64,000 nt of DNA, taken from Chloroflexota bacterium. GTDB lineage: Bacteria > Chloroflexota > UBA6077 > CF-72. The position numbers were made by a program, and so were the translations under genes. The notes below the pieces were generated by a model. It searched no databases. It was not told where the DNA came from and was given only the letters and a program-made list of their open reading frames with translations. The stretch lies in the NCBI GenBank assembly GCA_036506475.1, contig DASXRR010000450.1, forward strand, positions 913-64,912. Direction: 5' to 3'. Below, piece by piece: positions 1,846-30,011 of this stretch. Numbering within the stretch: position 1 is the stretch's first letter; the number at the start of each line of letters is the position of its first letter.

Positions 1846-1852
1846 ATCGCAC

Positions 1853-3301
1853 GTGGGTCTGGCACGCCCCGTTGTCCGCAACACGCTCGCGCTGAGCGCT
1901 GGCCAGCTGGGAACACGCGCGTTGACGATTGTCTACGTCGCGGCGCTCGCGCGGCACATTCATACCGACGGCATGGGCGCTCTGGCTACCTCGCAGTCGC
2001 TCGGGGTGATCGTGGCGCTGCTCATCGGACTTGGTCACGACACCCTCGCCATCCGCGAGATCGCGGCTCGCCCGCACGAAGCAACGGCCTGGTTATGGGA
2101 CCTGCTCGGCTTACGCGTCGTGCTGTCCGTGGCCGGGTTGATCGGACTGGCGCTGTTCAGTCGACTCGTCGACTATCCGCCCGAAACGAGCCAGGTCGTC
2201 CTCGTCTACGGCCTGGTCACCGTTGTCGGCGCACTCTTATCAGTGCCACGGAACCTGATTCAGGCGCGCGAGCTCCTCGCGCTCGAGGCGGCGGTCCAGT
2301 TCGGACGCGACGTCGCCAATATCGTGCTGAGCGTGATCGCCATCGCGCTAGGCGCCAGCCTGCTGACGATCGTGTGGATTTCGGTGCTCGCCAACCTCGG
2401 CCAGCTGGCAGTTGAGCTGGCTATCGTCGCGCGGCGCAAGATGGCGACGTGGGGCCGTCCGTCGCCGGCGCGCATCCGCGCCATATTTCGCGGCGGCATC
2501 GGAATTGGCCTGGTCGTGCTGTGCAGCATCATGTACGCGCAGGTCGGGACGATTCTGCTTTCGCTCCTGGCCGGGCCAACGGCAACGGGTACGTACGCCG
2601 CCGCGTACAACCTGCTGCTCGTTCTGTTGATCGTGCCCGACATGTTCCAGCGGGCAGTCTTTCCCGTCTTCGCGAGATTGCACGCTGACCCAAATCGAAA
2701 CCTGGGCGAGGCATACGAACAATCACTGCGGGCATTGACCGCGGTCGCGCTGCCGCTGGCCATTGGCACCTTCCTTGTGGCAGAGCCGGCCATCGGCCTG
2801 TTGTATGGGCCGGACTTTGCCGCTTCCGTGGCGCCGCTGCGCGTGCTGTGCGCCGCGGTCGCGGTGACGGCGAGCTACGCCAGCGGTGCGATCCTGATCG
2901 CCACCGGCCAACAGCGCCGATTCGCGTTGACCACGGGCGCCGAGCTGTTCGTCCAGGTCGCGCTGGCTGTGGCGCTGATCCCGATCTGGGGCCCCCTTGG
3001 CGCGACCATCGGCTACGCCGTGCCGCGGGTCATCGCGTTCTTCGGCTACCTCGTGTGGTGTCATCGTCTGCTGCGTCGGCGGCCTCGGCTGGCGCCGCTG
3101 CTGCGCATCGCATTGGCCAGTCTGATCATGGGCGCCGTCGTCGTCGCCGCGCTGCAAGCGGGCGTGCACTGGCTGTGGCTGGCCTGTCTGATCGGGCCGC
3201 TAGCGTATGGTCTCGCGCTGCTCGCACTGGGCGAGCTGAAGCTCGCGGATCTACGACTGCTAGGCCGCGGACGCCTCGGAGCCCAACAGCGCCTCCAGTG
3301 A
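1853..3301 (+). CDS. Polysaccharide flippase, MOP/Wzx superfamily multi-pass membrane protein
   Basis: Long hydrophobic protein with many predicted TM helices. The GTG at 1853 lies just after the GT2 stop (1843-1845). The longer ORF from 1586 overlaps GT2 and its extension has an Arg/Cys-rich off-frame composition. Confidence 0.75.
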   Translation: MGLARPVVRNTLALSAGQLGTRALTIVYVAALARHIHTDGMGALATSQSLGVIVALLIGLGHDTLAIREIAARPHEATAWLWDLLGLRVVLSVAGLIGLALFSRLVDYPPETSQVVLVYGLVTVVGALLSVPRNLIQARELLALEAAVQFGRDVANIVLSVIAIALGASLLTIVWISVLANLGQLAVELAIVARRKMATWGRPSPARIRAIFRGGIGIGLVVLCSIMYAQVGTILLSLLAGPTATGTYAAAYNLLLVLLIVPDMFQRAVFPVFARLHADPNRNLGEAYEQSLRALTAVALPLAIGTFLVAEPAIGLLYGPDFAASVAPLRVLCAAVAVTASYASGAILIATGQQRRFALTTGAELFVQVALAVALIPIWGPLGATIGYAVPRVIAFFGYLVWCHRLLRRRPRLAPLLRIALASLIMGAVVVAALQAGVHWLWLACLIGPLAYGLALLALGELKLADLRLLGRGRLGAQQRLQ

Positions 3302-4381
3302 CGCGGCGACGTACTCGATTTGCTCCTCGGTAAGCTCGGGGAACATCGGCAGCGACAGGACTTCGCGGGCGATGCCCTCCGTAGCTGGAAGGTCGCCCTG
3401 GGCATAGCCGAGGTCGTGCGCAGCTACCTGGAGGTGGACGGGCACCGGGTAGTGGATGCCGGTGCCGACGCCGCGCTGAGCGAGCTGCGCCTGCAGCCAG
3501 TCCCGCCGCGGAGTGCGAATGACGTACTGGTGGTAGACGTGCTCGCCGTTGGCCACCAGCTCGGGCCGCACGACCGGTAAGTCGGCCAACAGCTCGTCAT
3601 AACGGGCTGCATGCTGGATGCGCCGCCCGTTCCACTCGTCCAGGTGGCGCAGCTTTATGCGTAGTACCGTGCACTGGATCTCGTCGGGCCGACAATTGAA
3701 CCCGAGCAGCGCGTGCTGGTAGCGCACCTCTTCGCCGTGGCTGCGGTACAGACGCAGTTTTCGGTCGAGCTCTGGGTCGGACGTTGTGATCGCGCCCGCT
3801 TCGCCATAGGCGCCGAGATTCTTGGAGTAGTAGAAGCTGAACGTCGCCAGATCGCCCAGGCTGCCGGCGCGCCTGCCGCGTCCATCACACGCGCCGTGTG
3901 CTTGCGAAGCGTCCTCGATGACTAGCAGGCCGTGCCGCCGAGCAATCGCCAGCAGCTGATCCATCGGGCACAGCCGGCCATAGAGATGCACCGGAATGAT
4001 GGCCCGCGTGCGCGGCGTGATGTGTCGCTCGACCTGGTCGACGTCCATGGTAAATGTGCGCGGGTCGACGTCGACGAGGACGGCCCGTGCGCCAACCTGG
4101 TCGATCGCCTCGACCGTGGCGATGAAGGTGTGGCTGACGGTGATGACCTCAGCACCCGGTCCGACGCCCGCGGCTCGGAGCGCAAGATGCAGCGCATCCG
4201 TCCCGTTACCGACCGCGACCGCGAATCGGCTGCCGCAGTAATCAGCAAACTCGGCCTCGAATGCACGCGTATTCGGGCCTAAAAACAGCTGCCCGGATTC
4301 GAGTACGGCCTCGATGGCGGGCATGAGCTCGGCACGTAGCGATCGAAACTGGGTCGGAAGATCGACCTGGGGAACGTGCAT
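3260..4381 (-). CDS. DegT/DnrJ/EryC1/StrS-family PLP-dependent sugar aminotransferase
   Basis: Contains 'FAVAVGNGTDALHLAL', 'VIEDASQAHG' and the Lys motif 'SFYYSKNLGAYGEAG'. Its 3' end overlaps the flippase 3' end convergently by 42 nt. Confidence 0.9.
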   Translation of the reverse strand: MHVPQVDLPTQFRSLRAELMPAIEAVLESGQLFLGPNTRAFEAEFADYCGSRFAVAVGNGTDALHLALRAAGVGPGAEVITVSHTFIATVEAIDQVGARAVLVDVDPRTFTMDVDQVERHITPRTRAIIPVHLYGRLCPMDQLLAIARRHGLLVIEDASQAHGACDGRGRRAGSLGDLATFSFYYSKNLGAYGEAGAITTSDPELDRKLRLYRSHGEEVRYQHALLGFNCRPDEIQCTVLRIKLRHLDEWNGRRIQHAARYDELLADLPVVRPELVANGEHVYHQYVIRTPRRDWLQAQLAQRGVGTGIHYPVPVHLQVAAHDLGYAQGDLPATEGIAREVLSLPMFPELTEEQIEYVAASLEALLGSEASAA

Positions 4382-4439
4382 GGGTGATTCTTCAGCCTAG
4401 CGGCTATGATTCCAACGCGGGAGGCGGTCAAACATTCGC

Positions 4440-6053
4440 ATGACGGGGATGCGTCTGGGCTCGAGGTTATGTGCGGTCGCGCTCATTCTGGCAGTGAGCT
4501 CGGGCTTGGCGCCCGCGAGCGCGGCGGTGAATCTCGCGAGCAGCACGCGGATCAGGCCCGATCGAGTCATCGCCGGCGGAACGGTCGCCATCAATGCGGC
4601 GTTCAATAGCGCGGACCCGCTCGAGAACGTGAATGTGGCGGTCGAGGTGCGCAGCCCGGCTGGCGAGCGTGTGTTCCAGCAGGTCATACCGGCGCAAACG
4701 TTCGTGCCAGGTCGAGATTATGCGTATGCGGCGCGCTGGTCCGTGCCACGCGACCTCACGCCCGGACTCTATTCCGTCCAGATCGGTGCATTCTCGAGCG
4801 ACTGGAGCACGAGCTATAGCTGGAACGAGCGCGCTGGGCTGGTCACGGTCACCGACAGTTTCGTCGGCTTCGTGCCCACCGCGTACTACGTCGACTGCTT
4901 GCTTGGCAACGACTCCAATGCGGGAACCGTGGCCGGTGACGCGTGGGCAAGCCTGGCACGCGCGAACGAGGCGCTGCTCCAGCCCGGTGACTTCTTGCGT
5001 CTGCGGCGTGGCTGCACGTGGACCGGTCCGCTCCTGGCCTCGTGGAATGGCACGCAGCTGCATCCGATCACGATCGAAGCCTATGGCAGTGGCAGCCTGC
5101 CCGAGATCCAGAACGACGACTTCGCGCAAGTCAACATCAAAGGCAGTTTCCTGGTTTTTGACAGCTTGCATGTGCGGTCGGATCCGGCGTTCATCGACGA
5201 GTCATGCAAGAACAACCGCATTGGCTATCGACTGGGCTTTTTCTTCGCGCCCGGCTCGAGTAACAACGTGCTCAAGAACTCGTTGATCGAGGACACTGGC
5301 GCGGGCGTGGACATCGGACCCGGCTCGTATGGGAACACGATTACCCAAAACGAATTCCTCAACAACAACATGATGTGGGACGTGGATCCGTGGCTGAACG
5401 ATGGCGGCGCCAACGGCATCCTGATCGAAGGCGACAGCAACGACGTCAGCTACAACCACATCTCAGGATCGATTGTGTGTTCGATCCGCTACCCGGCCGA
5501 CGGCTCAGCTTTTGAGCTGACTGGTGCGACGAACAATCGCATTCACCACAATCGTGTCGGCGGGAACTGGACGTTCGCGGAAGTAAGCCAGTCGACCAAC
5601 AACGACTTTGCGTACAACATCAGTACTGATTCAGGGTTCACCAATCACGCCACGTCCATCGGGACGCGCCTGTTCAACAACGTGTTCTACGTGCCCGGCG
5701 GCGGCATCGTGAGCTGTTTCCCGTGCCAGGAGGGCGGTCTGGCGTTGGTGAACAACATCATCTTCGCCGACATCGCGCTGTATACCGATGGTCCGATCGT
5801 CGAGCACAACAACGTGTACTGGCGGCCGGGCGTGGGCTCGCCGTCGATGACCATCACCCGCGATCCCTCTTCGAAGGTCGCCGACCCGATGTTCGTCGAT
5901 CCCGCGACGGGTGACTTCCACCTGCGCGCGGGCAGTCCAGCCATCAATGCGGGCAGCGCCGAGAGCATCGACGCCGGGTTCAGCCAGGATATGGACGGCA
6001 CGTCGGTGCCCATCGGGCCAGCGGTGGACATCGGCAACTTCGAGCGCGAGTAG
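4440..6053 (+). CDS. Secreted right-handed parallel beta-helix protein, paralog 1 (signal peptide, one N-terminal beta-sandwich-like domain, beta-helix)
   Basis: N-terminal signal peptide ('LCAVALILAVSSGLAPASA'). It shares 'YYVDC..GNDSNAG', 'LRRGCTWTGPL', Asn-rich 'N.I..N' helix rungs, 'HHNRV' and a C-terminal 'VADPMFVDP..GDFHL..GSPAINAG' with the ORFs at 6300, 8379 and 10406. Confidence 0.75.
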   Translation: MTGMRLGSRLCAVALILAVSSGLAPASAAVNLASSTRIRPDRVIAGGTVAINAAFNSADPLENVNVAVEVRSPAGERVFQQVIPAQTFVPGRDYAYAARWSVPRDLTPGLYSVQIGAFSSDWSTSYSWNERAGLVTVTDSFVGFVPTAYYVDCLLGNDSNAGTVAGDAWASLARANEALLQPGDFLRLRRGCTWTGPLLASWNGTQLHPITIEAYGSGSLPEIQNDDFAQVNIKGSFLVFDSLHVRSDPAFIDESCKNNRIGYRLGFFFAPGSSNNVLKNSLIEDTGAGVDIGPGSYGNTITQNEFLNNNMMWDVDPWLNDGGANGILIEGDSNDVSYNHISGSIVCSIRYPADGSAFELTGATNNRIHHNRVGGNWTFAEVSQSTNNDFAYNISTDSGFTNHATSIGTRLFNNVFYVPGGGIVSCFPCQEGGLALVNNIIFADIALYTDGPIVEHNNVYWRPGVGSPSMTITRDPSSKVADPMFVDPATGDFHLRAGSPAINAGSAESIDAGFSQDMDGTSVPIGPAVDIGNFERE

Positions 6054-6065
6054 TCTCATCCGGAT

Positions 6066-6081
6066 GGGGCCGAATGGCCCC
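6066..6081 (+). terminator. Hairpin GGGGCC-gaat-GGCCCC immediately downstream of paralog 1
   Basis: Perfect 6-bp GC stem with a tetraloop, 13 nt after the stop. No U-tract. Confidence 0.3.
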
Positions 6082-6117
6082 TACGAGCACCGACTTTCGG
6101 CGACTCAGACTAGTTCT

Positions 6118-6139
6118 GGGCGCTCTCAGCAGAGCGCTC
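6118..6139 (+). terminator. 9-bp hairpin (GGGCGCTCT-cagc-AGAGCGCTC, one G-U pair) in the paralog 1 / paralog 2 intergenic region
   Basis: Inverted repeat read directly from the sequence. This is the second hairpin in the same spacer. Confidence 0.3.
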
Positions 6140-6299
6140 GGTACGCCACAGAATCGGCCCAACACTAGCGCTCAGCGCTCGGCAAGCGGGTAGATGAGCT
6201 CTCCTCCAACGGGAGGGCGAACTCTCCACCAATGGTTGGGTTCCGCGATCGGCGAGCGGCGTCGCGACTGCGAACGCAGCGCCATCAAGGAAGGCCGCC

Positions 6300-7580
6300 A
6301 TGCTCAGGAATGCTTGTCGCGCAGCTATTGCTTTGCTCACGACGCTCGCTCTGTCGTCGCCTGTCGCACATGCCGCCCCGCAGACGTATTTCGTCGATTG
6401 CGCGGACGGCAATGATGCCAACTCCGGCAGTGATCCGGACGCGGCGTGGGCGACGCTTGGTCGGGTCGGGCAAGCGAACCTGGCGCCGGGCGATGCTGTG
6501 CGCCTCAAGCGCGGTTGCACCTGGACGGGTGTCCTGAATGCACACTGGGACGGTACCGCCGATCAGCCGATCGTCATTGCCCCATATGGTGAGGGCAATG
6601 CTCCGACGATTGAGGCCGCCGCCGACAGCGTCGACCTGTCCGGCAGCTACGTGGTCGTCGACGGTCTGGCCTTGCATGGTACGCCCGAGCGAGTCGATCC
6701 TGGCTGCAATAACCAGCCCGTCGGCTATCGCGTCGGCGTTCAGGTCAAGGGTGGTGCGCACCACAACACGGTTCGCAACTCGAACTTCAGCAGCCTGAGC
6801 ATGGGTGTCTCTGTGGCCAAGGGCGCGGCCAACAATATGATCCAGAAGAACACCTTCGCCGACGTCGACATGATGTTCACGCTCACGCCCAAGAGTGCCA
6901 ACGCATCAGATGATGGCGGGGCCCAGGCGATCCTGCTCGCAGGTGATTACAACGACGTCAGCTACAACACCGTGCTCGGCTCGATCGCGTGTTCGTACGA
7001 TTTCAACACGGATGGCGCGGTCGTCGAGATCTGGGGTGGCGGACACAATACGATCCACCACAACTATTCGGAAAATACCGACATCTTCGGCGAGGTGAGT
7101 CTTCCGTCGGCCGTCGACAACGCCTTCAGCTACAACATTGCGAACGGCCATCGCGGGCTGACCGTGCACGGTGAGACGAGCGGCACCAAGGTCTACAACA
7201 GCGTCTTCTACAGCGTTGGCGGCAGCGGCGATAACGGTGTGGTGTGCGCGTCGTGCAGCAACGCCAAACTGACGTTCAAGAACAACATCGTGTGGGCCTA
7301 CGGCGGGCTTTCGACTGGTGGCGCCCCAGCGGACGAGGGCTTCAACGTGTACTGGGCCTCGAACGGCAGCCCCTTCCTCGACGTACAGATCAGCACCACG
7401 TCGATGGTCGCCGATCCGAAGTTCGAGCAGCCCGGCAGCGATTTCCGCCTGCAGGCCAATAGCCCCGCGATCGATGCGGGCACCACCGAATCGGTGATCG
7501 CCGGCTTCACGACCGACCTGGACGATAACGCCGTCCCAGGCACCACCGCGGGTATCGAGCTAGGCACCTACGCCTTCTAA
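6300..7580 (+). CDS. Secreted right-handed parallel beta-helix protein, paralog 2 (no N-terminal beta-sandwich domain)
   Basis: Signal peptide 'AIALLTTLALSSPVAHA' is followed directly by 'YFVDCADGNDANSG', 'LKRGCTWTG', 'GSGDNGVVCASC..LTFKNNIVWAYGGLSTGG' and 'VADPKFEQPGSDFRL'. Confidence 0.75.
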   Translation: MLRNACRAAIALLTTLALSSPVAHAAPQTYFVDCADGNDANSGSDPDAAWATLGRVGQANLAPGDAVRLKRGCTWTGVLNAHWDGTADQPIVIAPYGEGNAPTIEAAADSVDLSGSYVVVDGLALHGTPERVDPGCNNQPVGYRVGVQVKGGAHHNTVRNSNFSSLSMGVSVAKGAANNMIQKNTFADVDMMFTLTPKSANASDDGGAQAILLAGDYNDVSYNTVLGSIACSYDFNTDGAVVEIWGGGHNTIHHNYSENTDIFGEVSLPSAVDNAFSYNIANGHRGLTVHGETSGTKVYNSVFYSVGGSGDNGVVCASCSNAKLTFKNNIVWAYGGLSTGGAPADEGFNVYWASNGSPFLDVQISTTSMVADPKFEQPGSDFRLQANSPAIDAGTTESVIAGFTTDLDDNAVPGTTAGIELGTYAF

Positions 7581-7601
7581 ATCCTGGCACTCGCGCTCGC
7601 C

Positions 7602-7637
7602 CCGCACGTGCCGTAGGGTTAGGCCTGGCATGTGCGG
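7602..7637 (+). terminator. 11-bp hairpin (CCGCACGTGCC ... GGCATGTGCGG, one G-U pair, 14-nt loop) downstream of paralog 2
   Basis: Inverted repeat read directly from the sequence. It overlaps the first codons of the decayed ATP-grasp ORF. Confidence 0.3.
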
Positions 7638-8317
7638 AGCCGCGTGTTGAGGCTGCTGTTCGCGGGCGATCCGCTTGCGCCACGGGCAGTCGATTCAATG
7701 TACCAGCGTGAGGCCGACGCGGCCGTGGGGCTGGGCATCGCGACTGATCTGCTCGACTTCGAGTCGCTGGTCAACGACGGCGACGCCGAACGTGCCACAC
7801 GGCGGGTCGCCGAGCCAGGGCCCGACGACCTGTGCGTGTACCGTGGCTGGAGGATGCAGCCAGCCCAATACACAGCGCTGTTCGAGGCCCTCCAGCGGCG
7901 TGGCGTCGTGCTCGTGAATGATCCCGATGCATATCGGCGGTGTCACTACTTGCCCGAGTGGTACGCCAGTCTGGCCGACAGCACCCCGCGCTCGGTCTGG
8001 CTGACGGACACATCGCTGGACGCGGTCATGCACGCTGTCCAGCCGTTGGCGCTGCGCCACTGGTGTTGAAGGACTACGTGAAGTCGCGCAAACACGAGTG
8101 GAATGAGGCCTGCTTCATTCCGTCCGCGGCCGATCGCGCCGGCGCTGAACGCGTGGTCAAGCGCTTCGTAGAGCTGCAAGGTGATGACCTGGCCCAGGGT
8201 CTCGTGTTCCGCGAGCTCGGCGACGGCCAGGTCGCGGGCTTGCCTGACAGTGCCGATCCAGCGGAGTTCTACAGAGCGTTGGCCGGCGGGCTACTTTTGC
8301 GTTACGACACAATCTGA
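7632..8317 (+). pseudogene. Decayed ATP-grasp-domain gene (frameshift plus apparent internal deletion)
   Basis: Two overlapping ORFs in different frames (7632-8069 and 7940-8317) together read like one protein. The join runs '...VYRGWRMQPAQYTALFEAL..RGVVLVNDPDAYRRCHYLPEWY' then 'PLVLKDYVKSRKHEWNEACFIP' then 'LVFRELGDGQVAGLP'. The frame switches near nt 8041-8050. The segment expected between 'LVFR' and 'ELGDGQV' in intact relatives appears to be missing. Confidence 0.55.
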
Positions 8318-8378
8318 CTAATATGCGCGCGACCGCCCCTGGCGGAATCCACCAGGTACTCGCTCAAGGAGCGGCTTC

Positions 8379-10337
8379 GTGCTCGCATTTCGCTTCATTC
8401 GAATCTCGATTTTCTTGTCCGCCTTGCTCGCCGCGCAGATTGGCGTGCTGCCATCGCACGCGGCGACCTTCGTCAGCAGCTCAGTCGTCGTTACTCCAAC
8501 GCAACCCGCGGTGGATGCAAACGTCAGCATTGTCGCGACGTTTACCAGTCCTGACGCACTGCTGAACGTCATTCTCGACGTCGAAGTCCGTGACGCGACG
8601 AACACGAAAGTGTTCCAGCAAGCATTCTCAGGCCAGTCGCTCGCCGCGACCGTGGCCACCACGGTAACCAGCACCTGGCGACCCACCACCAACGGCACGT
8701 ATACGGTCAAGACGGGTGTCTTCTCGGCGAACTGGTCGACGGGCTACGGCTGGAACGACGCGGCCGGGACGATCACAGTTGGGCCGCCGCCGCCACCACC
8801 AGCCGCGCCACGCTTCACCAGCAGCGCCACGGTCAATCCGGCTACGGTTGCACCAGCGGCCCAGGCGACGATCACCGCGACATTTACTAGCACGACTGCC
8901 GTCAGTGGCATCAACATCGACGTCGAAGTCCGCAATGCGACAGGCACCAAGGTGTTCCAGCAGGTGTTCCCAGCCCAGGTCTTCACGGCTGGCCAGACAC
9001 GCACCTTTACCAGCACGTGGGCGGTGGCCTCGGGCGTCGCGCCCGGTAGCTACACGGTCAAGACTGGCGCCTTTTCGAGCGATTGGGCGACGGGCTATGG
9101 CTGGAACGATGCCGCCGCGACGATCACCGTGGCTGCGCCGAGCAGCCAGCCGGGCTACTACGTCGACTGCACCGGCGGCAACGACGCCAACCCAGGCACC
9201 GACGCCACTCGCGCGTGGTCGACGCTGAGCAAAGTCAACCAGGCAACACTCAAGGCCGGCGATGCCATCTGGCTGAAGCGCGGCTGCACCTGGACCGGGC
9301 CGCTGAACCTGCGCACCAGCGGGACCAGTGCCCAGCCGATCAAGGTCGGAGCCTATGGCTCGGGCAGTCTGCCGATCATCAGCAATGCTCAGAACCAGAT
9401 TGACGTGAACGCGAGCTACATCGTCATCGACAGCGTCTACCTGCGCTCCAACCCGGACACGGTCGACGCGAGCTGCAACAACAATCCCATCGGCTCACGC
9501 GCTGGCGTCACCTTCCATACGGGCAGCGCGTACAACGTGGTTCAGAACTCAACCATTGCCGACATGGCGACCGGGATCAACATCACTCCCGGCTCGCACC
9601 ACAACCAGATCAAGAACAACGAGCTCACCAATAACAAGATGATGTTCAACGTCGATCCGTACACCAACGACGGTGGCGGACATGCGATTCTGGTCGAGGG
9701 CGACTTCAACGATATCGCCTACAACCGTATTCACGACTCGCTGGCCTGCTCGAGGCGCTACGGATACGACGGCGACGCCGTTGAGATGTACGGCGGCCAC
9801 GACAACACGATCCACCACAACCTGACCTGGAACAACTGGCAGTTCACCGAGTTGAGCCTGTCGACGACCAGCAACAACGTCTACGCCTACAACATCGTCA
9901 ACGGCCACAACGGCGTGAGCAGCCACGTCGGACCAACCGGCACCAAGATCTACAACAACGTCTTCTACAGCACCGGTGGCTCAGGCGATAACGGTGTGGT
10001 GTGCAGCCAGTGCAGTACGACAGTCATGACCTTCAAGAACAACATCGTCTGGGCGTACGGGGCGCTGTCGACTAGCGGTCGACCGATTGACGAAGGCAAC
10101 AATCTGTTCTGGGCACCGAACGGCGGGCCGTATTTCGACTTTGCACGCAGCGTTACCGACAAGGTGGCCGACCCACGCTTCGTGAGCCCTGGTAGCGACT
10201 TTCATCTGCAGTCAGGCAGCCCCGCGGCGAATGCCGGCACGGTCGAGTCGGTCAACGCCGGCTGGCGCGTCGATCTCGACGGACGGGCCGTACCCACGAA
10301 TGGCGGCGTCGACATCGGTCCGTACGAGCTGCCCTGA
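8379..10337 (+). CDS. Secreted right-handed parallel beta-helix protein, paralog 3 (two tandem N-terminal beta-sandwich-like domains, poly-Pro linker, beta-helix)
   Basis: GTG start with AAGGAG upstream and a signal peptide. Two copies of the '..DVEVR.A.G.KVFQQ.F....TW......G.YTVKTG.FS..W.TGYGWNDAA.TITV' module are followed by 'YYVDCTGGNDANPG', 'LKRGCTWTGPL', 'GSGDNGVVCSQC..MTFKNNIVWAYGALSTSG' and 'VADPRFVSPGSDFHL'. Confidence 0.75.
   Translation: MLAFRFIRISIFLSALLAAQIGVLPSHAATFVSSSVVVTPTQPAVDANVSIVATFTSPDALLNVILDVEVRDATNTKVFQQAFSGQSLAATVATTVTSTWRPTTNGTYTVKTGVFSANWSTGYGWNDAAGTITVGPPPPPPAAPRFTSSATVNPATVAPAAQATITATFTSTTAVSGINIDVEVRNATGTKVFQQVFPAQVFTAGQTRTFTSTWAVASGVAPGSYTVKTGAFSSDWATGYGWNDAAATITVAAPSSQPGYYVDCTGGNDANPGTDATRAWSTLSKVNQATLKAGDAIWLKRGCTWTGPLNLRTSGTSAQPIKVGAYGSGSLPIISNAQNQIDVNASYIVIDSVYLRSNPDTVDASCNNNPIGSRAGVTFHTGSAYNVVQNSTIADMATGINITPGSHHNQIKNNELTNNKMMFNVDPYTNDGGGHAILVEGDFNDIAYNRIHDSLACSRRYGYDGDAVEMYGGHDNTIHHNLTWNNWQFTELSLSTTSNNVYAYNIVNGHNGVSSHVGPTGTKIYNNVFYSTGGSGDNGVVCSQCSTTVMTFKNNIVWAYGALSTSGRPIDEGNNLFWAPNGGPYFDFARSVTDKVADPRFVSPGSDFHLQSGSPAANAGTVESVNAGWRVDLDGRAVPTNGGVDIGPYELP
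8463..9131 (+). repeat. Intragenic tandem duplication of a ~105-aa module (8463-8780 and 8811-9131) separated by a Pro6-containing linker
   Basis: The two segments of the translated sequence align by eye. A single copy of the same module is present in paralog 1 (about nt 4527-4856). Confidence 0.7.
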
Positions 10338-10405
10338 AAAAGGGCACCTCGTGCAAGGCGTGATACGCTGGCGGCGCCCCATCCGCACTTCTGGAGGAGC
10401 ACTAC

Positions 10406-11758
10406 ATGGCACGTGTTCGCGACTGGCGAAGGCTCGCAGCCATCCTGCTGCTGGTCATCGGTCTCGTCCTACCAACAGGTGCGATCGCACAGGAAGAACC
10501 GCGCACTGCACAGCCGGTCAGCGAATCGTCCATTGGCCCCACAAGTGAGATCCTGCCGCCACCAACTGGCCAGGCCTACTATGTCGATTGCAATGGCGCG
10601 AACGACGGCGCCGACGGTCGAGACGCCGCGCGAGCGTGGGCAACACTCGCGCGCGCGAACAAGGCGACACTGCAGCCCGGCGATGCGCTACTGCTGAAGC
10701 GCGGCTGCGCATGGACTGGCCCACTGCTGGCGAGCTGGGTGGGCAGCGCCACACAGCCGATCCAGATCGGCGCCTACGGCGACGGTGATCGGCCGGTGAT
10801 TCAGAACTCGAACAGTGAAGTCGTGGTCACGGGTAGCTTTCTCATCTTCGATAACCTGAAGGTCCGGTCCGACCCCGATAGCGTCGACACCGCGTGCAAC
10901 AACAATCCGATCGGCAACCGCACTGGGTTCAGCTTCGAACGTGGCGCGACGTACAACGTGACCCAGAACTCGGTGATCTCCGACCTGGCGAGCGGTGTGT
11001 TCTTTACACCCGCGGCCCACCACAATCGCCTGGTCCACAACGAATTGTCGAACAATACGATGATGTTCGACGCCGATCCGTGGCGGAACGATGGCGGCGG
11101 ACAGGCAATCCTGCTCGAGGGCGACTTCAACGAAATCGCCTACAACCAGATCTTTGGCTCAATGGCGTGCTCGACGCGATTCACTACGGATGGCACCGCC
11201 ATCGAGTTGTATGGCGGTCAAAACAACGCGATCCATCACAACTCGACGTGGAACAACGCCAACTTCACCGAGGTCACGCTGCCCCGCACGACAAATAATG
11301 TCTATGCGTACAACTTGATCAACGGGCACTCCGCGGCGACGGTGCACGGCGGATCAAGTGGCACCAAGGTCTACAACAACGTCTTCTACAGCACCGGCGG
11401 CTCCGGCGACAACGGCGTAGTGTGCTATCCCTGTACGAACGACGTGCTGACGTTCAAGAACAACATCGTGTGGGGCTATGGCGCGCTATCGACGAGCGGG
11501 ACTCCGCTCGACGAGGGGCACAACCTGTATTGGGCGCCGAACGGGCACCCCTACCTGGACGCACCCATCAGCAGCTCGTCACGGGTGGCCGATCCGCTGT
11601 TCGTCGATCCGGGGGTGGATTTTCACCTGTCCATCGATAGTCCGGCACACGGCGCGGGCAGCCTGGAGATCCTGAGCCTCGGCTTCCTGCACGATCTGAA
11701 TCTGGTTCCAGTGCCGCAGCGCGACACGCCCAGCGTGGGGGTGTACGAGCTTCCCTGA
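10406..11758 (+). CDS. Secreted right-handed parallel beta-helix protein, paralog 4 (no N-terminal beta-sandwich domain)
   Basis: ATG with GGAGGA upstream and a signal/anchor sequence 'LAAILLLVIGLVLPTGAIA'. Contains 'YYVDCNGANDGADG', 'LKRGCAWTGPL', 'GSGDNGVVCYPC..LTFKNNIVWGYGALSTSG' and 'VADPLFVDPGVDFHL'. Confidence 0.75.
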   Translation: MARVRDWRRLAAILLLVIGLVLPTGAIAQEEPRTAQPVSESSIGPTSEILPPPTGQAYYVDCNGANDGADGRDAARAWATLARANKATLQPGDALLLKRGCAWTGPLLASWVGSATQPIQIGAYGDGDRPVIQNSNSEVVVTGSFLIFDNLKVRSDPDSVDTACNNNPIGNRTGFSFERGATYNVTQNSVISDLASGVFFTPAAHHNRLVHNELSNNTMMFDADPWRNDGGGQAILLEGDFNEIAYNQIFGSMACSTRFTTDGTAIELYGGQNNAIHHNSTWNNANFTEVTLPRTTNNVYAYNLINGHSAATVHGGSSGTKVYNNVFYSTGGSGDNGVVCYPCTNDVLTFKNNIVWGYGALSTSGTPLDEGHNLYWAPNGHPYLDAPISSSSRVADPLFVDPGVDFHLSIDSPAHGAGSLEILSLGFLHDLNLVPVPQRDTPSVGVYELP

Positions 11759-11799
11759 GCGCCGCTGAAGTCCAGGTTGGCTGGCAGCCGCGCAAAGGC

Positions 11800-13230
11800 G
11801 TGCGGCTGCTCGCGGTCGGCATACTCGCCGTGGCACTGATAGGCGTCTTGCCACTGTTGTGGCTGTCGCTGGCCGATGACCGTGGCGTCGTTTCGATCCT
11901 GATCGCAGCAGGCGCAGTGTTGTTCGGGCTGCTGTCCGTGCGCTCGCTGATGCCGCTCGCGCTGGTGCTGGTCGTCCTGACCGCGGATGCATTGGGCGTC
12001 TTCGGCGATCGGGGCGGCGACGTCCTGCCCTATGTACAGGTATTCGGCGGGGTCCGCGTGACGCTGCGCGACGGCCTGCTCATCCTCGGTCTGCCACTGG
12101 CCCTTATGCAGCTTGTGCGCCGACGCGAAGCGCCGGTCTACATCCAGCCCTACCTCGCGGTGCTGGGCACGATCGCAGTTGGTTTCGTGCTCGGAATCTT
12201 GTCGGACGCCGACGTGAAGGCACCGCTCAACACACTGCGGCCGTTGTTCGGCTACGCCCTGTACCTCATTCTCATCGCGGCCGTCGACACGCGGGGCAAG
12301 CTGCTCTGGCTCTTGGGCGCGAGCTTTGGCGTCGCCGTCGTGGCTGTCGGGATCCAGGTTGTCGAAGCCGGGCGCGGTGGTCTATTGCCGTTTCTCGCCC
12401 CGCCGATTGCGGCCGGGCAGGCGTTTGCCGGGGTATCGGTCGAAGGCCGCCAGGTGCCGTATATCTGGAATCGCGCGGTCTGGCAGTTGTTTCTCACGCT
12501 GCTGCTGGCGCTCGGTGGCCTGCTCGAATGGCGCGCCGTCCGCCTGCATCTGAGCCTGGCGCTGGTATGCGCGCTTGGTTTCGGCATCATGCTCACCCGC
12601 TCGTGGTACATCTTCATCGGCGTCGGGGTGCTGGCCATCTTGTTTGCCAGCCGCGCGTGGAGCCAGCGCCTGCGCTTCCTCGCGGCTATGGCGTTCGGGC
12701 TGGTGACCCTGGCGTTGCTGGCGACCGCAGCTTCGGAGCTGACGTCAGCGCACTACGGCGGCTCGTTGGCAGACGTCTGGCTGGCACGTGTGTCGACCTT
12801 GCTCAGCGTCTCGCAGGATCAAAGCTTCGTCACCCGCGTCAGCGAGCTTGGCCGACAGTGGCAGGCGGTGCTCGCCGCGCCTGTGTTGGGCTATGGCATG
12901 AGCGCCGATGCGCAGCGGCTCAGCCTGCAGGTCGGAAATCTCGACACCGGCGCCGTCAACACCCTGCTCATGTTCGGCTTCGTGGGCACCGCCGCGTTCG
13001 TGGCCCTGGTGTGCTGTGCGGCGTGGTCGAGTCTGCGCCTGGCGCGTCGCCTTGCGCCCTCGTGGCAACGCGGCTACGCCATCGGTTTATTCGGGTTGTG
13101 GGTCGGCGTGCTGGTCGGCTACGCCTTCAACTACGACTTCCTGACCTACCCGCATGGACCGTGGTTGGTCGTCCTCGGACTGACGATTGGCGATCGGCTG
13201 GAGCGCCTGGGTTACACTCCGGTTGACTAG
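11800..13230 (+). CDS. O-antigen polymerase/ligase (Wzy_C-like) family multi-pass membrane protein
   Basis: About 10-12 hydrophobic segments with a larger loop in the C-terminal half. The position next to a flippase in a glycan locus also fits. Assignment rests on topology and context, not on a strict motif. Confidence 0.6.
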   Translation: MRLLAVGILAVALIGVLPLLWLSLADDRGVVSILIAAGAVLFGLLSVRSLMPLALVLVVLTADALGVFGDRGGDVLPYVQVFGGVRVTLRDGLLILGLPLALMQLVRRREAPVYIQPYLAVLGTIAVGFVLGILSDADVKAPLNTLRPLFGYALYLILIAAVDTRGKLLWLLGASFGVAVVAVGIQVVEAGRGGLLPFLAPPIAAGQAFAGVSVEGRQVPYIWNRAVWQLFLTLLLALGGLLEWRAVRLHLSLALVCALGFGIMLTRSWYIFIGVGVLAILFASRAWSQRLRFLAAMAFGLVTLALLATAASELTSAHYGGSLADVWLARVSTLLSVSQDQSFVTRVSELGRQWQAVLAAPVLGYGMSADAQRLSLQVGNLDTGAVNTLLMFGFVGTAAFVALVCCAAWSSLRLARRLAPSWQRGYAIGLFGLWVGVLVGYAFNYDFLTYPHGPWLVVLGLTIGDRLERLGYTPVD

Positions 13231-13251
13231 CGAGCGCGGGGCCAGCGGCCA

Positions 13252-15546
13252 GTGCCGCTGCACCACGATATGCCCGTACAAGCGCAGTTGCGCGACATCG
13301 TGCGCCGCTCCCTGCCCGACCGCCAGCGGATGCTGCTGAGCAAGCTCAGTCTGGCCGTGGGTCTGCGCCCGCGCTTGAATCGCGCGTCGGCATCGCCACT
13401 TACTTTTCCTGAGGGTCGGCGGGCTGCTGTGGTCGTGTCGGCCGACCTCGAGTTGGCCTGGGCATGGCGGTTCGCCCGCTCGTCGAGTGATCCGGCCGAG
13501 TTAGCCCACCGCAAAGCCATCCAGGGCCGCCGCAACATGGGTCCACTGCTCGACCTGTGCGATCGCTTCGGCGTGCCCGTGACGTGGTGCGTCGTCGGCC
13601 ACCTTCTGCTCGACCATTGCGATCGCACCAACGGCACCATCCATCCAGAGACGCCGCGTGTGCCGCATTTCACCAATGCCTTGTGGCGCTACGAGCACGG
13701 AGACTGGTTCGACCATGACCCTGGCGCTGCTGACGCGAGTGACTCCCGCTGGCTCGATTGGCACGGCCCTGACCTGATCCGCGAGATCCTCGCCCGTCCG
13801 ATCGCGCATGAGATCGGTTGCCACAGCTTCTCGCACCCAACGTTCATGGATCGCATTTGTCCCGCGGAGGTCGCGCGCGCCGAGCTCCACCGCTGCCAGG
13901 AATTGGCCGCGCAGTGGGGTCTGCGGCTTCAGTCCTTCGCCTTCCCGGGCAACCTGCAGGGCAATCATCACGTCCTGCGCGAAACACGGTTCCGGTCCTA
14001 CCGCGTCGACGATTGGGCGGATATCGACACGCCCCGGCGCGACGAGCACGGACTGTGGCGGCTCAACGGCGGTGTGTGCCTCGATCGTCCCTACGCCGAT
14101 GGCCCGGCGGGCGATCACATCCGACTAGCTCAGCGCTGCATCGACGTCGCCATCGAGCGTGGGCAGGTGTGTGGCCTGTGGTTTCATCCAGAGACCAATC
14201 CGCGTGATGTGGACGAAATCTTTCCCAGCGTCTTTGAGCACGTTGCCCGCCGCCGTGATGACTTGTGGATCACGACCATGAGCGGCTTGACTGACTGGCT
14301 CGACCGCGCCGCGCGGCCCGTGACACGCGTTCGACATGTAGCGCACGCTCGCGCCGGGCAACCGACGGCCTTCGTGTGCAGCCTGTTCGACACGGGTCTG
14401 GCAGCCGTCAGAAGCCTCGGCCGGGCGGGTGTGCCGGTGATCGGGCTCGACTCGAATCCGCACGAACCTGGCTTCAAGTCCCGCTACGTGCGCGGTCTGC
14501 GCTGTCCCGATCCGGTGCTCGACGCCGAATGTCTGGTCGACTACCTGACTGAGCTTGGTCAACAACAGGACGAGCCGGGCGTGCTGATACCGGCCTCGGA
14601 CGCCTGGGTGCTGTTCATTTCGCGCAACCGCGACCGCCTGCAGCCGTACTTTCGCATGCGCATGCCGGCGTCGGACGTCGTGGAGGCGCTGGTCGACAAG
14701 CGTCGCCAGTATCAGCTTGCGGAGCAGGTCGGCACGCCGTACCCGCGCACCTTCTACCCGTCCACGCTGGACGAGGCGCGCGAGTGCGCGAAGCAAGTCG
14801 ACTACCCCGCGTTTTTGAAACCGTACTACGGCCACCTGTGGCGCGAGCAATTCGGCGGCGCACACAAGGGCTTCAAAGTGCGCGATGCCGACGAGCTACT
14901 CAGCTGCTTTGCTAAGGCACTCGCGAGTGGTCAACCAGTGATGGTCCAATCGATCATTCTCGGACCGAACACCAATCACTTCAAAGTGTGCGCGTACTTG
15001 GACGAACAAGGCGAGACATTGGCGGTTTTTACGCTGCGCAAGATCCGGCAGTACCCTGTCGAATTTGGCGTGGGTACGCTCGTCGAAAGTGTGTGGGACG
15101 ACGAGCTGCGCGAGCTCGGGCTGCAGTTCATGCGCGCGATTGGATACCGCGGCATCGGCTCGGTCGAGTTCAAGCGCGACGATCGTGATGGGCAGCTGAA
15201 GCTGATCGAGCTGAATCCTCGACTGTGGCAACAGAACGCACAGGCTGCCGCGTGCGGGGTCGATTTCGCGCTGATCGCATACCGCGACATGATTGGCGAG
15301 CATCCTGCGCCAGTGTGCACGTTTCCACGTGGCGTCAAATGGCTCGACGCGGCCGCGGATGTGCAGGCAGCGTGGGATTACTTTCGCCGTGGCGAGCTCT
15401 CGCCTGGCAAGTGGCTCGGATCAATGCGCGGCGTGCAGTCGTTTGCGACGTTCGCCGTCGACGATCCGCTGCCGTTTCTGAGAAATTACGAGTTCGGCCT
15501 CAAGGGTTTACGCCTGCCCTTGTATTTGCTGAGGCACCGTGGGTGA
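13252..15546 (+). CDS. Fusion protein: N-terminal polysaccharide deacetylase (CE4/NodB-like) and C-terminal ATP-grasp carboxylate-amine ligase
   Basis: The N-terminal half carries 'AAVVVSADLELAW', 'VPVTWCVVGHLL' and 'IGCHSFSHP' (H-x-x-x-H metal motif). The C-terminal half carries 'VCSLFDTGLAAVRSLGRAGVPVIGLD', 'YPAFLKPYYG', 'VMVQSII' and 'GSVEFKRDDRDGQLKLIELNPRLW' (ATP-grasp). A single uninterrupted frame covers both halves. Confidence 0.75.
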   Translation: MPLHHDMPVQAQLRDIVRRSLPDRQRMLLSKLSLAVGLRPRLNRASASPLTFPEGRRAAVVVSADLELAWAWRFARSSSDPAELAHRKAIQGRRNMGPLLDLCDRFGVPVTWCVVGHLLLDHCDRTNGTIHPETPRVPHFTNALWRYEHGDWFDHDPGAADASDSRWLDWHGPDLIREILARPIAHEIGCHSFSHPTFMDRICPAEVARAELHRCQELAAQWGLRLQSFAFPGNLQGNHHVLRETRFRSYRVDDWADIDTPRRDEHGLWRLNGGVCLDRPYADGPAGDHIRLAQRCIDVAIERGQVCGLWFHPETNPRDVDEIFPSVFEHVARRRDDLWITTMSGLTDWLDRAARPVTRVRHVAHARAGQPTAFVCSLFDTGLAAVRSLGRAGVPVIGLDSNPHEPGFKSRYVRGLRCPDPVLDAECLVDYLTELGQQQDEPGVLIPASDAWVLFISRNRDRLQPYFRMRMPASDVVEALVDKRRQYQLAEQVGTPYPRTFYPSTLDEARECAKQVDYPAFLKPYYGHLWREQFGGAHKGFKVRDADELLSCFAKALASGQPVMVQSIILGPNTNHFKVCAYLDEQGETLAVFTLRKIRQYPVEFGVGTLVESVWDDELRELGLQFMRAIGYRGIGSVEFKRDDRDGQLKLIELNPRLWQQNAQAAACGVDFALIAYRDMIGEHPAPVCTFPRGVKWLDAAADVQAAWDYFRRGELSPGKWLGSMRGVQSFATFAVDDPLPFLRNYEFGLKGLRLPLYLLRHRG

Positions 15547-16697: not shown

Positions 16698-16704
16698 GCG
16701 ACGC

Positions 16705-19916: not shown

Positions 19917-19920
19917 GCAC

Positions 19921-26285: not shown

Positions 26286-26290
26286 CGGCG

Positions 26291-28491: not shown

Positions 28492-28495
28492 GTCA

Positions 28496-30010: not shown

Positions 30011-30011
30011 G

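Follow-up and report, generated by a model that had tools for sequence, protein, structure and literature searches.

Four tandem paralogues encoding secreted beta-helix proteins, putative glycanases, in a Wzx/Wzy-type exopolysaccharide locus of a Chloroflexota bacterium

Several bacteria encode secreted proteins that act on the polysaccharide they themselves produce. In Pantoea stewartii, WceF cleaves the organism's own exopolysaccharide (EPS), stewartan, and wceF knockouts give rise to longer chains (PMC7949094), while the Bep cluster of Burkholderia cenocepacia includes Bcam1339, a parallel beta-helix repeat protein (PMC3584217). In Vibrio cholerae, RbmB is encoded alongside the VPS matrix genes and breaks down the matrix polysaccharide of its own producer (PDB 9ozd title). 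Rhizobium leguminosarum possesses several paralogous secreted glycanases, PlyA, PlyB and PlyC, which trim its own acidic EPS; PlyA and PlyB bear an appended beta-sandwich lectin (Ra/CHDL) domain, and plyB (RL3024) lies next to plyC (RL3023) (PMC9298526). Among beta-helix glycosidases, the GH136 enzyme ErLnb136 employs a catalytic Asp pair located seven residues apart, D568 as the acid/base and D575 as the nucleophile (PMC7335108), and GH136 activity requires a helical GH136-I/LnbY helper (PMC7335108, PMC8106489).

The window analyzed here is a stretch of 64,000 nucleotides from a Chloroflexota bacterium, a host known only as a metagenome-assembled genome (MAG). It comprises the following features:

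952..30743, no strand assigned: Wzx/Wzy-type exopolysaccharide locus (Pfam scans)
3260..4381, minus strand: DegT/DnrJ/EryC1-type sugar aminotransferase (PF01041, E=3e-122), divergent from paralogue 1
4440..6053, plus strand: paralogue 1, 537 aa, with a signal peptide at residues 1-28, a Wzt-CBD-like beta-sandwich and the beta-helix core
4524..4877, plus strand: Wzt-CBD-like beta-sandwich of paralogue 1 (residues 29-146)
6066..6081, plus strand: GC-rich hairpin GGGGCC-GAAU-GGCCCC after paralogue 1
6300..7580, plus strand: paralogue 2, 426 aa; beta-helix core immediately after the signal peptide, N-terminal module lacking
7599..7640, plus strand: long imperfect hairpin after paralogue 2
7695..8317, plus strand: remnant of an R2K-clade ATP-grasp pseudogene, frameshifted near 8069 and truncated
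8379..10337, plus strand: paralogue 3, 652 aa, starting with GTG; two Wzt-CBD-like beta-sandwiches between the signal peptide and the beta-helix core; lost in sister genomes
8463..8786 and 8805..9152, plus strand: Wzt-CBD-like beta-sandwiches of paralogue 3, joined by a poly-Pro linker
10296..10337, plus strand: 3' end of paralogue 3, 42 nt (TNGGVDIGPYELP and the stop codon), surviving as a scar in the sister locus L001
10406..11758, plus strand: paralogue 4, 450 aa; RR pair in the signal peptide, beta-helix core
11800..13230, plus strand: Wzy-like membrane protein (O-antigen ligase/polymerase family), immediately following the array

The Pfam scans agreed with the first-pass annotation, which had placed the array between precursor genes and the polymerase of a glycan locus: a minus-strand DegT aminotransferase lies upstream and a Wzy-like gene downstream. 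The locus harbors GT2, Wzx, DegT, the array, Wzy, a deacetylase-ATP-grasp fusion and five GT4s, together with AsnB-like, Wzz-like, GH4-like, FemAB-like, BY-kinase-like Wzz and priming Bac_transf genes, and housekeeping genes were found from ~33.5 kb on. The array supplies the first genes of a long same-strand series, syntenic in L001-L003, whose promoter presumably lies in the short intergenic region between DegT and paralogue 1. In L001, the DegT orthologue was called at 354 aa and the Wzy-like gene (PF04932, E=3.6e-5, under the gathering score) is syntenic.

All four open reading frames proposed earlier (starting at 4440, 6300, 8379 and 10406) were present on the plus strand, and each of the collinear motifs attributed to them was recovered in the four-way alignment, which contains more than 120 invariant columns. 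Their paralogy was equally borne out by pairwise BLASTP, with 42-57% amino-acid identity over ~390-520 aa (E 1e-93 to 1e-176), a similarity that we judge to be far above chance. Inspection combined with a hydropathy script supported the predicted Sec-type signal peptides, as the N-termini of all copies show one to four K/R, a 12-residue hydrophobic core (KD 2.1-3.3) and an A-x-A site near residue 25-28; the script revealed no TM-like segment after the signal peptide in any copy. The anticipated conservation of Cys was likewise found, with six residues in each mature protein. Neither SLH, sortase, TM, repeat-adhesin nor other anchoring features were detected in the four copies by Pfam scan and hydropathy. 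The initial observation of four paralogous secreted genes is thus confirmed.

The spacers required more revision. Each gene had been credited with its own ribosome-binding site, which held for paralogues 2, 3 and 4 (AGGA/GGAG-type, ~7 nt upstream), whereas paralogue 1 has only a GGGAGG ending ~15 nt upstream. The hairpins reported after paralogues 1 and 2 were both present, in segments of 61 nt (-22.3 kcal/mol, z = -1.67) and 73 nt (-35.6 kcal/mol, z = -2.31), neither of them with a T-tract; a terminator scan found sites no more numerous than in shuffled sequence and did not call the hairpin of paralogue 1. The 800-bp stretch between paralogues 2 and 3, previously taken for a spacer, is not empty: it contains the frameshifted and truncated R2K-type ATP-grasp pseudogene, detected by PF14243 on two different frames (E=4e-16 and 9e-15), which retains only positions 3-62 of the 169 in the profile and is missing from L001. 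The 21-nt run said to be identical between paralogues 2 and 3 is an exact match (7227-7247 and 9984-10004); it is not special, since paralogues 2 and 4, and also 3 and 4, share 28-nt runs within that same conserved motif. Where residues are identical, third-position identity reaches only 0.56-0.60 and hence gives no sign of recent gene conversion, and the 21-nt run carries no information on recent exchange between copies.

The phylogeny that had been called for grouped the four copies into one clade with 100% bootstrap, each copy having its own environmental orthologues. With these separate orthologues and saturated synonymous sites, the duplications are old, and the array arose by tandem duplication. 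The copies with close orthologues, paralogues 1, 2 and 4, are under purifying selection (omega 0.072, 0.091 and 0.076, respectively, that is, 0.07-0.09); the L001 orthologue of paralogue 1 and the P0008/L001 orthologue of paralogue 2 both exhibit 91% amino-acid identity. The sister genome carries three copies plus the 42-nt scar of paralogue 3, which a local alignment of the L001 spacer placed a few nt past the stop codon of paralogue 2. This scar indicates that paralogue 3 was lost in the L001 lineage and, together with the three remaining copies, that four copies represent the ancestral state. Selection maintains the copies, which are nevertheless partly redundant, a sister lineage having deleted one of them.

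Regarding the fold, the claim of secreted parallel beta-helix proteins was substantiated by the AlphaFold model of paralogue 4 (P0001; pLDDT 90.4, pTM 0.88), which is predicted as a right-handed beta-helix, all-beta from residue 57 with short strands running to ~410, after a disordered linker of ~28 aa between signal peptide and core. All top Foldseek matches were beta-helix enzymes, and an Asn ladder (N279, N303, N325, N353 and N373), a trait of this three-faced fold with its stacked coils of ~22 residues, is conserved in 89-100% of family members; Pfam Beta_helix and NosD matches lay near threshold. GH136 lacto-N-biosidases occupied PDB ranks 1-6 (E 6e-12 to 2e-9), followed by Pel9A (PL9, E=2e-8), PL6 lyases, a rhamnogalacturonan lyase and RbmB. 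Profile searches also made the homology of the beta-helix domain to GH136-II detectable, the family profile matching TnX (7v6m) with E=1.9e-32 and 6kqs, 7v6i and 5gqc with 8e-22, 2e-21 and 2e-19; the significant parts of these matches were the 85-aa N-terminal cap and, for TnX, also the C-terminal half. The four paralogues are not LnbX equivalogs, scoring 26-40 bits against a cut-off of 2500 with the NCBIfam model. Membership in GH136 itself was rejected, as the nucleophile position aligns to Tyr and the helical helper domain is absent: no GH136-I (LnbY)-type domain occurs in the four proteins, the sole long helix of the paralogue 4 model being its signal peptide, and no extra gene for such a partner lies between or beside the copies, where only the ATP-grasp remnant was found. 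With 3,154 clusters at E<=1e-30, the family is large; it is uncharacterised and distantly related to GH136 glycosidases. The choice-of-anchor Q model (NCBIfam NF041518, cut-off 25), which describes a C-terminal cap motif of ~58 aa (DFHL..SPA..AG...D..G..R....DIGAYE) and is uninformative on function, matched paralogue 1 (32.4 bits) and paralogue 3 (25.4), fell just under its cut-off in paralogue 2 (22.7) and gave no match in paralogue 4.

The modular N-termini described at the outset were also recovered, with one Wzt-CBD-like module in paralogue 1, two in paralogue 3 and none in paralogues 2 and 4. The modeled module (pLDDT 95) found its best matches in Wzt carbohydrate-binding domains (8dky, 6o14, 2r5o and 5hno; TM-scores 0.70-0.76, E=2e-5) at a sequence identity of only 9-15%. 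Pfam Wzt_C (PF14524) scored 22-27 bits, under its cut-off of 30.4, and BsuPI (PF12690) reached 37.4 bits in paralogue 3 against a cut-off of 22.9.

Residue conservation was counted over 53 family members, with paralogue 4 numbering. Family members are only ~35% identical, yet a set of acidic and His residues is conserved: E289 in 100%, E267 in 87% (91% acidic), an acidic residue at position 243 in 91% (E243 in paralogue 4), H277 in 96%, H278 in 89% and E370 in 92%, the whole set being kept in all four copies. E243, E267 and E289 would form a carboxylate ladder on three successive rungs, with H277, H278 and E370 nearby, which may constitute the catalytic centre. The first Asp of the GH136 motif DGQxWDAD, the acid/base, aligns to D262, a position that is acidic (D or E) in all four copies and in 77% of members. 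D411 of LnbX likewise aligns to D262, D411/D418 being taken as the equivalents of the ErLnb136 pair by matching the aligned DGQAWDAD motif. The nucleophile, which is the last Asp of the motif, falls opposite Y269, in a weakly aligned part where a register shift is possible. Given this Tyr, and given that GH136 has no equivalent of H277, H278 or E289, the GH136 mechanism is not transferable. The ladder points to acid/base hydrolysis over metal- and Lys/Arg-assisted beta-elimination, and these residues are put forward as catalytic candidates only.

Of the two readings offered initially, enzymes or structural surface proteins, the former is favored by the conserved acidic/His set and by carbohydrate-binding modules (CBMs) fused to relatives, and the latter gained no positive support. 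We lean, with somewhat better than even confidence, toward the four genes encoding secreted glycanases that trim the Wzx/Wzy polymer of their own locus, the glycanase activity being suggested by fold, residue conservation and fusions. The four enzymes would cleave the exported EPS and thereby fix its chain length, detach polymer from the cell or reshape the matrix, a role as in WceF, RbmB, PslG and the Rhizobium Ply glycanases. Encoding within a biosynthetic locus and export, both features of this class of self-polymer glycanases, are shared by the array. The Wzt-CBD-like modules may tether paralogues 1 and 3 to the polymer, with paralogues 2 and 4 acting as free catalytic cores; the locus's own polymer is the proposed substrate, and the copies may divide the labour among themselves, possibly with the different specificities first suggested.

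It is unlikely that the proteins are instead polysaccharide lyases or C5-epimerases acting on uronic-acid residues, like PL6/PL9, RbmB or AlgG, with the conserved His abstracting the C5 proton. Pel9A, RbmB, many PL6 alginate lyases and chondroitinase B do figure among the Foldseek matches, and the HHN motif recurs in 89-100% of members, His being the catalytic base in AlgG/AlgE-type epimerases; glycoside hydrolases are nevertheless the best matches in both sequence and fold. PL1, PL6 and PL9 enzymes rely on a Lys/Arg base and a Ca2+ site, whereas no Lys/Arg is conserved at >=80% beyond the N-terminal cap in the family, R99, the sole conserved basic residue, lying within it. The Pfam Chondroitinas_B (PF14592) match of paralogue 3 (26.9 bits, cut-off 24) covers only positions 13-140 of 426, namely the N-terminal cap; paralogue 2 stays under threshold (17.8) and paralogues 1 and 4 show no match. 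With this partial match and no conserved basic residue after the cap, membership in PL6 was rejected. AsnB-like and ATP-grasp enzymes often amidate sugar carboxylates, so that their presence in the locus would imply acidic sugars, but Pfam found no UDP-sugar 6-dehydrogenase in those ORFs of the locus that were scanned. A non-catalytic role at the surface or in the matrix, with the proteins binding and organising the polymer as lectins, adhesins or scaffolds, seems improbable, the least probable of the readings weighed here. Beta-helices are common in adhesins, the Wzt-CBD-like modules suggest glycan binding, NCBI names paralogue 3 (P0006) only a 'choice-of-anchor Q domain-containing protein', and we know of no activity for this beta-helix family. 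Conservation of Glu and His across so divergent a family is, however, seen more typically in active sites than in binding faces, the copies lack the anchoring and repeat-adhesin features mentioned above, and many different CBMs are fused to family members, as is the case with catalytic modules.

The same fusions bear on a further alternative, that of foraging or competitive glycanases against foreign polymers (plant, fungal or competitor EPS), whose position in the EPS locus would be a genomic accident or reflect co-regulation with a biofilm lifestyle. In a set of 50 long family members, CBM96 was found in 14, CBM6/35 in 3 (P0036 has two such modules), CBM4_9 in 1, F5/8-C in 1 and dockerin in 2, and 13 carry a fused phytase or phosphoesterase domain, which hints that some members act on phosphorylated substrates; CBM96, CBM6/35, dockerin and phytase modules are typical of nutrient-scavenging enzymes. 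Related loci mostly carry one copy, in line with the earlier statement that single copies are usual, and such relatives lie in or beside glycan loci in L005, L006, L007, L008, L010, L017 and L021, while a crude tblastn test found no glycan genes near those of L004, L009, L011-L013, L016 and L018. Linkage to EPS loci is therefore frequent among distant relatives (about half), not universal, and P0010, 63% identical to paralogue 2, also resides in a non-glycan context. Against this alternative, genomes ~15% apart in nucleotide sequence keep the array between DegT and Wzy, the array is on the same strand as the biosynthetic genes and closely spaced with them, and the L021 relative sits inside the orthologous EPS locus, so we regard foraging as quite unlikely.

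Returning to trimming of the locus's own polymer, a bolder version, to which we give a low probability, is an extracellular tailoring battery devoted to one complex heteropolysaccharide. Four anciently diverged enzymes of a new glycoside-hydrolase-like family, whose candidate Glu-ladder/His-His centre differs from that of GH136, would each address a different linkage or chain end, and the Wzt-like modules on two of them would read a chain-terminal cap. If true, terminal-cap recognition, known in Wzt from the ABC-transporter pathway, would have been put to use extracellularly by a Wzy-dependent system, and the large family (>3,000 clusters) would be a new CAZy family.

By sequence profile and fold, the closest solved relatives are the GH136 enzymes (LnbX, BsaX, TnX and ErLnb136), with which the array proteins share the right-handed beta-helix, the acid/base Asp position and both caps, the N-terminal one (YYV-x-GxDxNxG...LxxGD...G) being very similar and the C-terminal one (SPAI-x-AG...DxxG...DIGA-E) the same. 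The array core is ~150 residues shorter, and the context is an EPS biosynthesis locus of a soil Chloroflexota rather than gut HMO or mucin catabolism. RbmB and the PL6/PL9 lyases have the beta-helix fold in common (Foldseek E 1e-4 to 2e-8) at TM-scores of only 0.3-0.55, and differ in their lyase mechanism, the array family having no basic residue conserved at >=80% beyond the cap. The Wzt C-terminal carbohydrate-binding domain has the same beta-sandwich fold as the modules of paralogues 1 and 3; it is cytoplasmic, on the ABC-transporter ATPase of the O-antigen pathway, whereas these modules are predicted to be extracellular and are fused to a beta-helix protein in a Wzy-dependent locus.

The first-pass annotation recognised no characterised system with this layout, which stands less well, since EPS-locus beta-helix glycanases (WceF, Bcam1339 and RbmB) and the PlyA/B/C paralogues are known; the layout is not entirely without precedent. 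WceF (with AmsF/WcaM-type proteins) and Bcam1339 are, like the array products, secreted beta-helix proteins inside Wzx/Wzy-dependent EPS clusters, but each is single-copy as against four, and their hosts are Proteobacteria with a periplasm, the array host being a Chloroflexota MAG. At 736 aa and with a Tat signal, WceF is trimeric and tailspike-like; it is devoid of Wzt-CBD-like modules and was not among the top 50 Foldseek matches of the paralogue 4 model. For a set of paralogous EPS glycanases that bear binding modules, PlyA/B/C are the best precedent, a likeness drawn from their description. They differ in several respects: their export runs through the PrsDE type I system instead of signal peptides, their lectin domain is C-terminal and cadherin-like instead of N-terminal and Wzt-like, and the ply genes lie outside the biosynthetic operon, whereas the array lies inside the EPS locus. 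The kind of enzyme and its place in EPS clusters are thus already known, and what is unusual here is the four-copy array and the particular family.

Alignment of the four predicted secreted beta-helix proteins revealed more than 120 invariant columns, pairwise identities of 42-57% (E values from 1e-93 to 1e-176) and every one of the shared motifs listed in the first-pass annotation, whose description of a four-gene array proved accurate and the finding real. The window belongs to a contig from a Chloroflexota metagenome-assembled genome. Paralogue 4 is identical to the NCBI protein VGL99_29750, and paralogue 3 to an NCBI "choice-of-anchor Q domain-containing protein" from the same 66.5-kb contig as paralogue 4. 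The array and the other delimited features of the window are as follows:

4440-6053, + strand: paralogue 1, 537 aa
6300-7580, + strand: paralogue 2, 426 aa
7695-8317, + strand: R2K-clade ATP-grasp pseudogene (PF14243), in two frames
8379-10337, + strand: paralogue 3, 652 aa
10406-11758, + strand: paralogue 4, 450 aa
13252-15546, + strand: 764-aa ORF, polysaccharide-deacetylase domain fused to an ATP-grasp (CPSase_L_D2) domain
16588-18636: AsnB-like gene
19726-21039, + strand: 437-aa ORF, no Pfam match
23368-25179, + strand: 603-aa ORF, no Pfam match
27391-28491: FemAB-like gene
37272-41676, + strand: eno, gap, pgk and tpi in a row

At its N-terminus, assigned by inspection as a signal peptide, each paralogue has one to four Lys/Arg residues ahead of a 12-residue hydrophobic core, which is followed by an A-x-A site at residue 25-28; no later transmembrane-like segment or C-terminal anchor was found in any of the four. 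Each mature part contains exactly six Cys, with conservation of these Cys at 91% or more across the wider family. The signal peptide of paralogue 4 (10406-10489) also harbors a twin arginine (DWRRLAAIL), which is conserved in the orthologue of the sister genome and absent from the signal peptides of paralogues 1, 2 and 3; export of this copy may proceed via Tat instead of Sec.

At the nucleotide level, the 21-nt identical run reported earlier between paralogues 2 and 3 is real but uninformative, since 28-nt runs join paralogues 2/4 and 3/4 and fall in the same GGSGDNGVVC/TFKNNIVW motif. Recent gene conversion was rejected as the origin of these runs because third-codon-position identity at identical residues between the paralogues is 0.56-0.60, a level that amounts to saturation in this GC-rich genome, and because even the best 90-nt window, within the most conserved motif, reaches only 0.83. 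The proposal that each gene has its own ribosome-binding site held for three of the four, which carry a canonical Shine-Dalgarno motif near position -7, but not for paralogue 1, where only GGGAGG was found, ending about 15 nt before the start. Both hairpins described downstream of paralogues 1 and 2 are present. They are weak (z = -1.7 and -2.3) and have no T-tract, and the terminator scan called neither of them; the sites returned by the terminator/promoter scan were no more numerous than in shuffled sequence.

Pfam scans placed the array in a Wzx/Wzy-type exopolysaccharide (EPS) locus of about 30 kb. The locus starts with a GT2, Wzx and a DegT aminotransferase gene (- strand, divergent from paralogue 1), continues with the four paralogues, a Wzy-like gene, the polysaccharide-deacetylase/ATP-grasp fusion, a GT4, the AsnB-like amidotransferase, a Wzz-like gene, an unknown gene, a GT4, a GH4-like gene, another unknown gene and two GT4s, and ends with the FemAB-like acyltransferase, a Wzz/BY-kinase-like gene and a priming Bac_transf, with housekeeping genes beyond. 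The deacetylase/ATP-grasp fusion, together with the AsnB-like and FemAB-like genes, suggests a polymer carrying amide- or amino-acid-linked groups. The 800-bp interval separating paralogues 2 and 3 contains the frameshifted and truncated ATP-grasp remnant, which retains positions 3-62 of 169 of PF14243, with the match divided between two frames, and is missing from the sister locus. The 603-aa ORF has an orthologue with 56% identity in the related locus L021. Between its Mg-chelatase-like gene and its GT2, the sister locus (L001 2337-4632, - strand) encodes a 675-aa methyl-accepting chemotaxis protein, whose counterpart region in the window (790-928) spans only about 140 bp. The longest-ORF boundaries of eno, gap, pgk and tpi overlap, so that their true start codons probably lie further downstream.

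The history of the array was examined with a bootstrapped neighbour-joining tree of 53 family members, in which paralogues 1-4 and their closest environmental relatives formed a single clade with 100% bootstrap. Within this clade every paralogue is accompanied by orthologues of its own, 50-70% identical to it: P0014 pairs with paralogue 1, P0009 and P0010 pair with paralogue 2, and P0002-P0005 pair with paralogue 4; paralogue 3 and P0007 split off next to the group of paralogue 4. These separate orthologues indicate that the duplications predate the divergence of several lineages. The same locus was recovered at 82-86% nucleotide identity in the sister genome GCA_009772905.1 (L001) and in two soil metagenome contigs (L002 and L003), each with only three copies, orthologous to paralogues 1, 2 and 4 at 91% amino-acid identity; copy number thus varies between close relatives. 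The gap left in a blastn comparison with L001 could be read as a recent insertion of paralogue 3, a reading that was rejected: the second and third genes of L001 are separated by a 114-bp spacer (11282-11395, against 10296-10405 in the window) that keeps, a few nucleotides past the paralogue 2 stop, the last 42 nt of the paralogue 3 coding sequence. This scar marks a deletion of about 2.7 kb in the L001 lineage, removing paralogue 3 and whatever stood upstream, and makes four copies the ancestral state. Also against an insertion, on contig L022 the C-terminus of another family member (…VPLGGLVDSGAYETR, then stop) precedes the paralogue 3-like P0007, so that tandem arrays with a paralogue 3-type gene exist elsewhere. 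The dN/dS values of 0.07-0.09 in three orthologue pairs, with a higher value of 0.12 for the neighbouring GT2, argue that these three genes of the array are maintained by selection.

Relatives at 35-46% identity occur one per locus. Seven such single relatives lie in or beside glycan-biosynthesis genes (L005, L006, L007, L008, L010, L017 and L021); such genes were not detected near the relatives in L004, L009, L011-L013, L016 and L018. L021 is an orthologous EPS locus, whose GT4s, ATP-grasp, GH4-like and one unknown gene are 56-67% identical to those of the window; its available 16 kb include just one copy, of the paralogue 1 type. P0010 (L004 3125-4318), 63% identical to paralogue 2 and without an N-terminal module, lies on a 49-kb contig amid non-glycan genes (DUF4331, ABC_sub_bind, DUF3551 and a histidine kinase), and may have reached this setting by horizontal transfer away from an EPS locus.

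Pfam matches on the four paralogues (Beta_helix, NosD and Chondroitinas_B) were all marginal, while NCBIfam models picked out the "choice-of-anchor Q" cap at the C-terminus and gave a weak match to the N-terminal end of LnbX. The AlphaFold model of paralogue 4, built from a 50-sequence alignment, reached pLDDT 90.4 and pTM 0.88, with short strands from residue 57 on and low confidence in residues 1-56 (signal peptide and linker). Its top Foldseek PDB matches were the GH136 lacto-N-biosidases 7v6i, 7v6m, 5gqc and 6kqt (E values from 6e-12 to 2e-9, TM about 0.5), followed by the PL9 Pel9A, PsAly, PL6 alginate lyases together with chondroitinase B, and a rhamnogalacturonan lyase, and after these by RbmB and a phage tailspike. 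Nothing favoured a prophage origin: a PHROGs search gave no meaningful match, and the viral Foldseek matches were generic beta-helix tail proteins.

The family profile aligned strongly with TnX (7v6m, E=1.9e-32) through the C-terminal half and a strikingly similar 85-residue N-terminal cap. The four paralogues are nevertheless not GH136 members. The catalytic roles in GH136 are known from ErLnb136 D568/D575 (PMC7335108), and in our HMM alignments the acid/base Asp of DGQxWDAD falls on D262 (paralogue 4 numbering) whereas the nucleophile Asp falls on a Tyr; the most conserved residues of the family have no GH136 counterpart; and the helical helper domain needed for GH136 activity (PMC7335108, PMC8106489) is not present in the models of the paralogue 4 core and the N-terminal module. 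The most conserved residues are E289 (100% of the family), H277 (96%), H278 (89%), E267 (87%), E370 (92%) and, at position 243, an acidic residue (91%), and the full set, with E243, is present in all four paralogues. The spacing of 24 residues between E243 and E267 and of 22 between E267 and E289, about one helix turn, suggests that the three Glu are stacked on successive rungs. A search for specificity sites among the four orthologue groups returned only one site.

A module of about 115 residues is present once in paralogue 1 and twice in paralogue 3 and, among the other matches, only in P0007 (two), P0014 (two) and P0009 (one). Its AlphaFold model (pLDDT 95) is a seven-strand beta-sandwich, for which the carbohydrate-binding domains of Wzt O-antigen ABC transporters ranked highest in the PDB (TM-scores 0.70-0.76); from this fold a glycan-binding role is predicted. 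The module is rare: a profile search gave only ten short fragments elsewhere and no further architectures. The beta-helix family, in contrast, is large: clustered at 50% identity, an exhaustive profile search gave 3,154 clusters at E<=1e-30 and 27,679 at E<=1e-10, and all but one of the best 150 matches cover nearly the whole core (about >=340 of 564 profile positions). The family has no characterised member and is often fused to carbohydrate-binding modules. In 50 long members we found CBM96 (14), CBM6/35 (3), CBM4_9 (1), F5/8-type-C (1), dockerin (2), SLH (1) and assorted Ig-like domains. Unexpectedly, 13 of the 50, drawn from P0110-P0251, are fused to phosphoesterases (beta-propeller phytase in eight, metallophosphoesterase in four, phosphoesterase in one), and hence some members may act on phosphorylated substrates.

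The best-supported reading is that the paralogues would be secreted glycan-cleaving enzymes acting on the locus's own polymer after export, with a catalytic centre formed by the Glu ladder and the His pair, and with Wzt-CBD-like modules that would tether two of the four to the polymer; we infer the activity, the substrate and any division of labour among the copies. A rival reading, a lyase or epimerase acting on uronic acids, would fit the PL6 and PL9 enzymes among the structural matches; yet beyond the N-terminal cap the family alignment holds no Lys/Arg conserved at >=80%, and this lack weighs against a PL1/PL6/PL9-type lyase centre. Another takes the paralogues as non-catalytic matrix proteins, a role that the predicted glycan-binding modules would fit; against it stand the conserved acidic and His residues and the CBM fusions, which are typical of catalytic carbohydrate-active modules. 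The paralogues could also be foraging glycanases for foreign polymers, as relatives away from glycan-biosynthesis genes would allow; the array itself lies inside an EPS locus. A bolder idea, that the four copies make up a specialised multi-enzyme tailoring battery recognising a cap outside the cell, is unsupported; we consider it possible but improbable.

If an activity were assigned, thousands of environmental proteins would gain an annotation, and a new CAZy family next to GH136 might be defined. The array also offers a natural experiment, four co-located paralogues with and without binding modules, one of them lost in a sister genome, useful for studying bacterial control over the size and the release of self-made exopolysaccharide.

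The own-polymer glycanase reading is supported by analogy with several known systems. WceF, whose gene belongs to the stewartan cluster, cleaves stewartan, and chains become longer when WceF is lost (PMC7949094); Bcam1339 is a beta-helix gene within another Wzx/Wzy cluster (PMC3584217); and RbmB degrades the Vibrio matrix polysaccharide. Rhizobium PlyA, PlyB and PlyC are paralogous glycanases that trim their own EPS at the cell surface, with a lectin domain on PlyA and PlyB and two of the three genes adjacent (PMC9298526). Enzymes of this general type, secreted beta-helix proteins that act on carbohydrates and are encoded in an EPS locus, are therefore already known, and only unusual chemistry or unusual Wzt-like modules would bring more than a modest conceptual gain. 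What is new is a conserved tandem array of three to four genes at the operon head, its membership of a large uncharacterised family beside GH136 with a different set of conserved residues, and the fusion to modules that, judging from the models, are Wzt-CBD-like.
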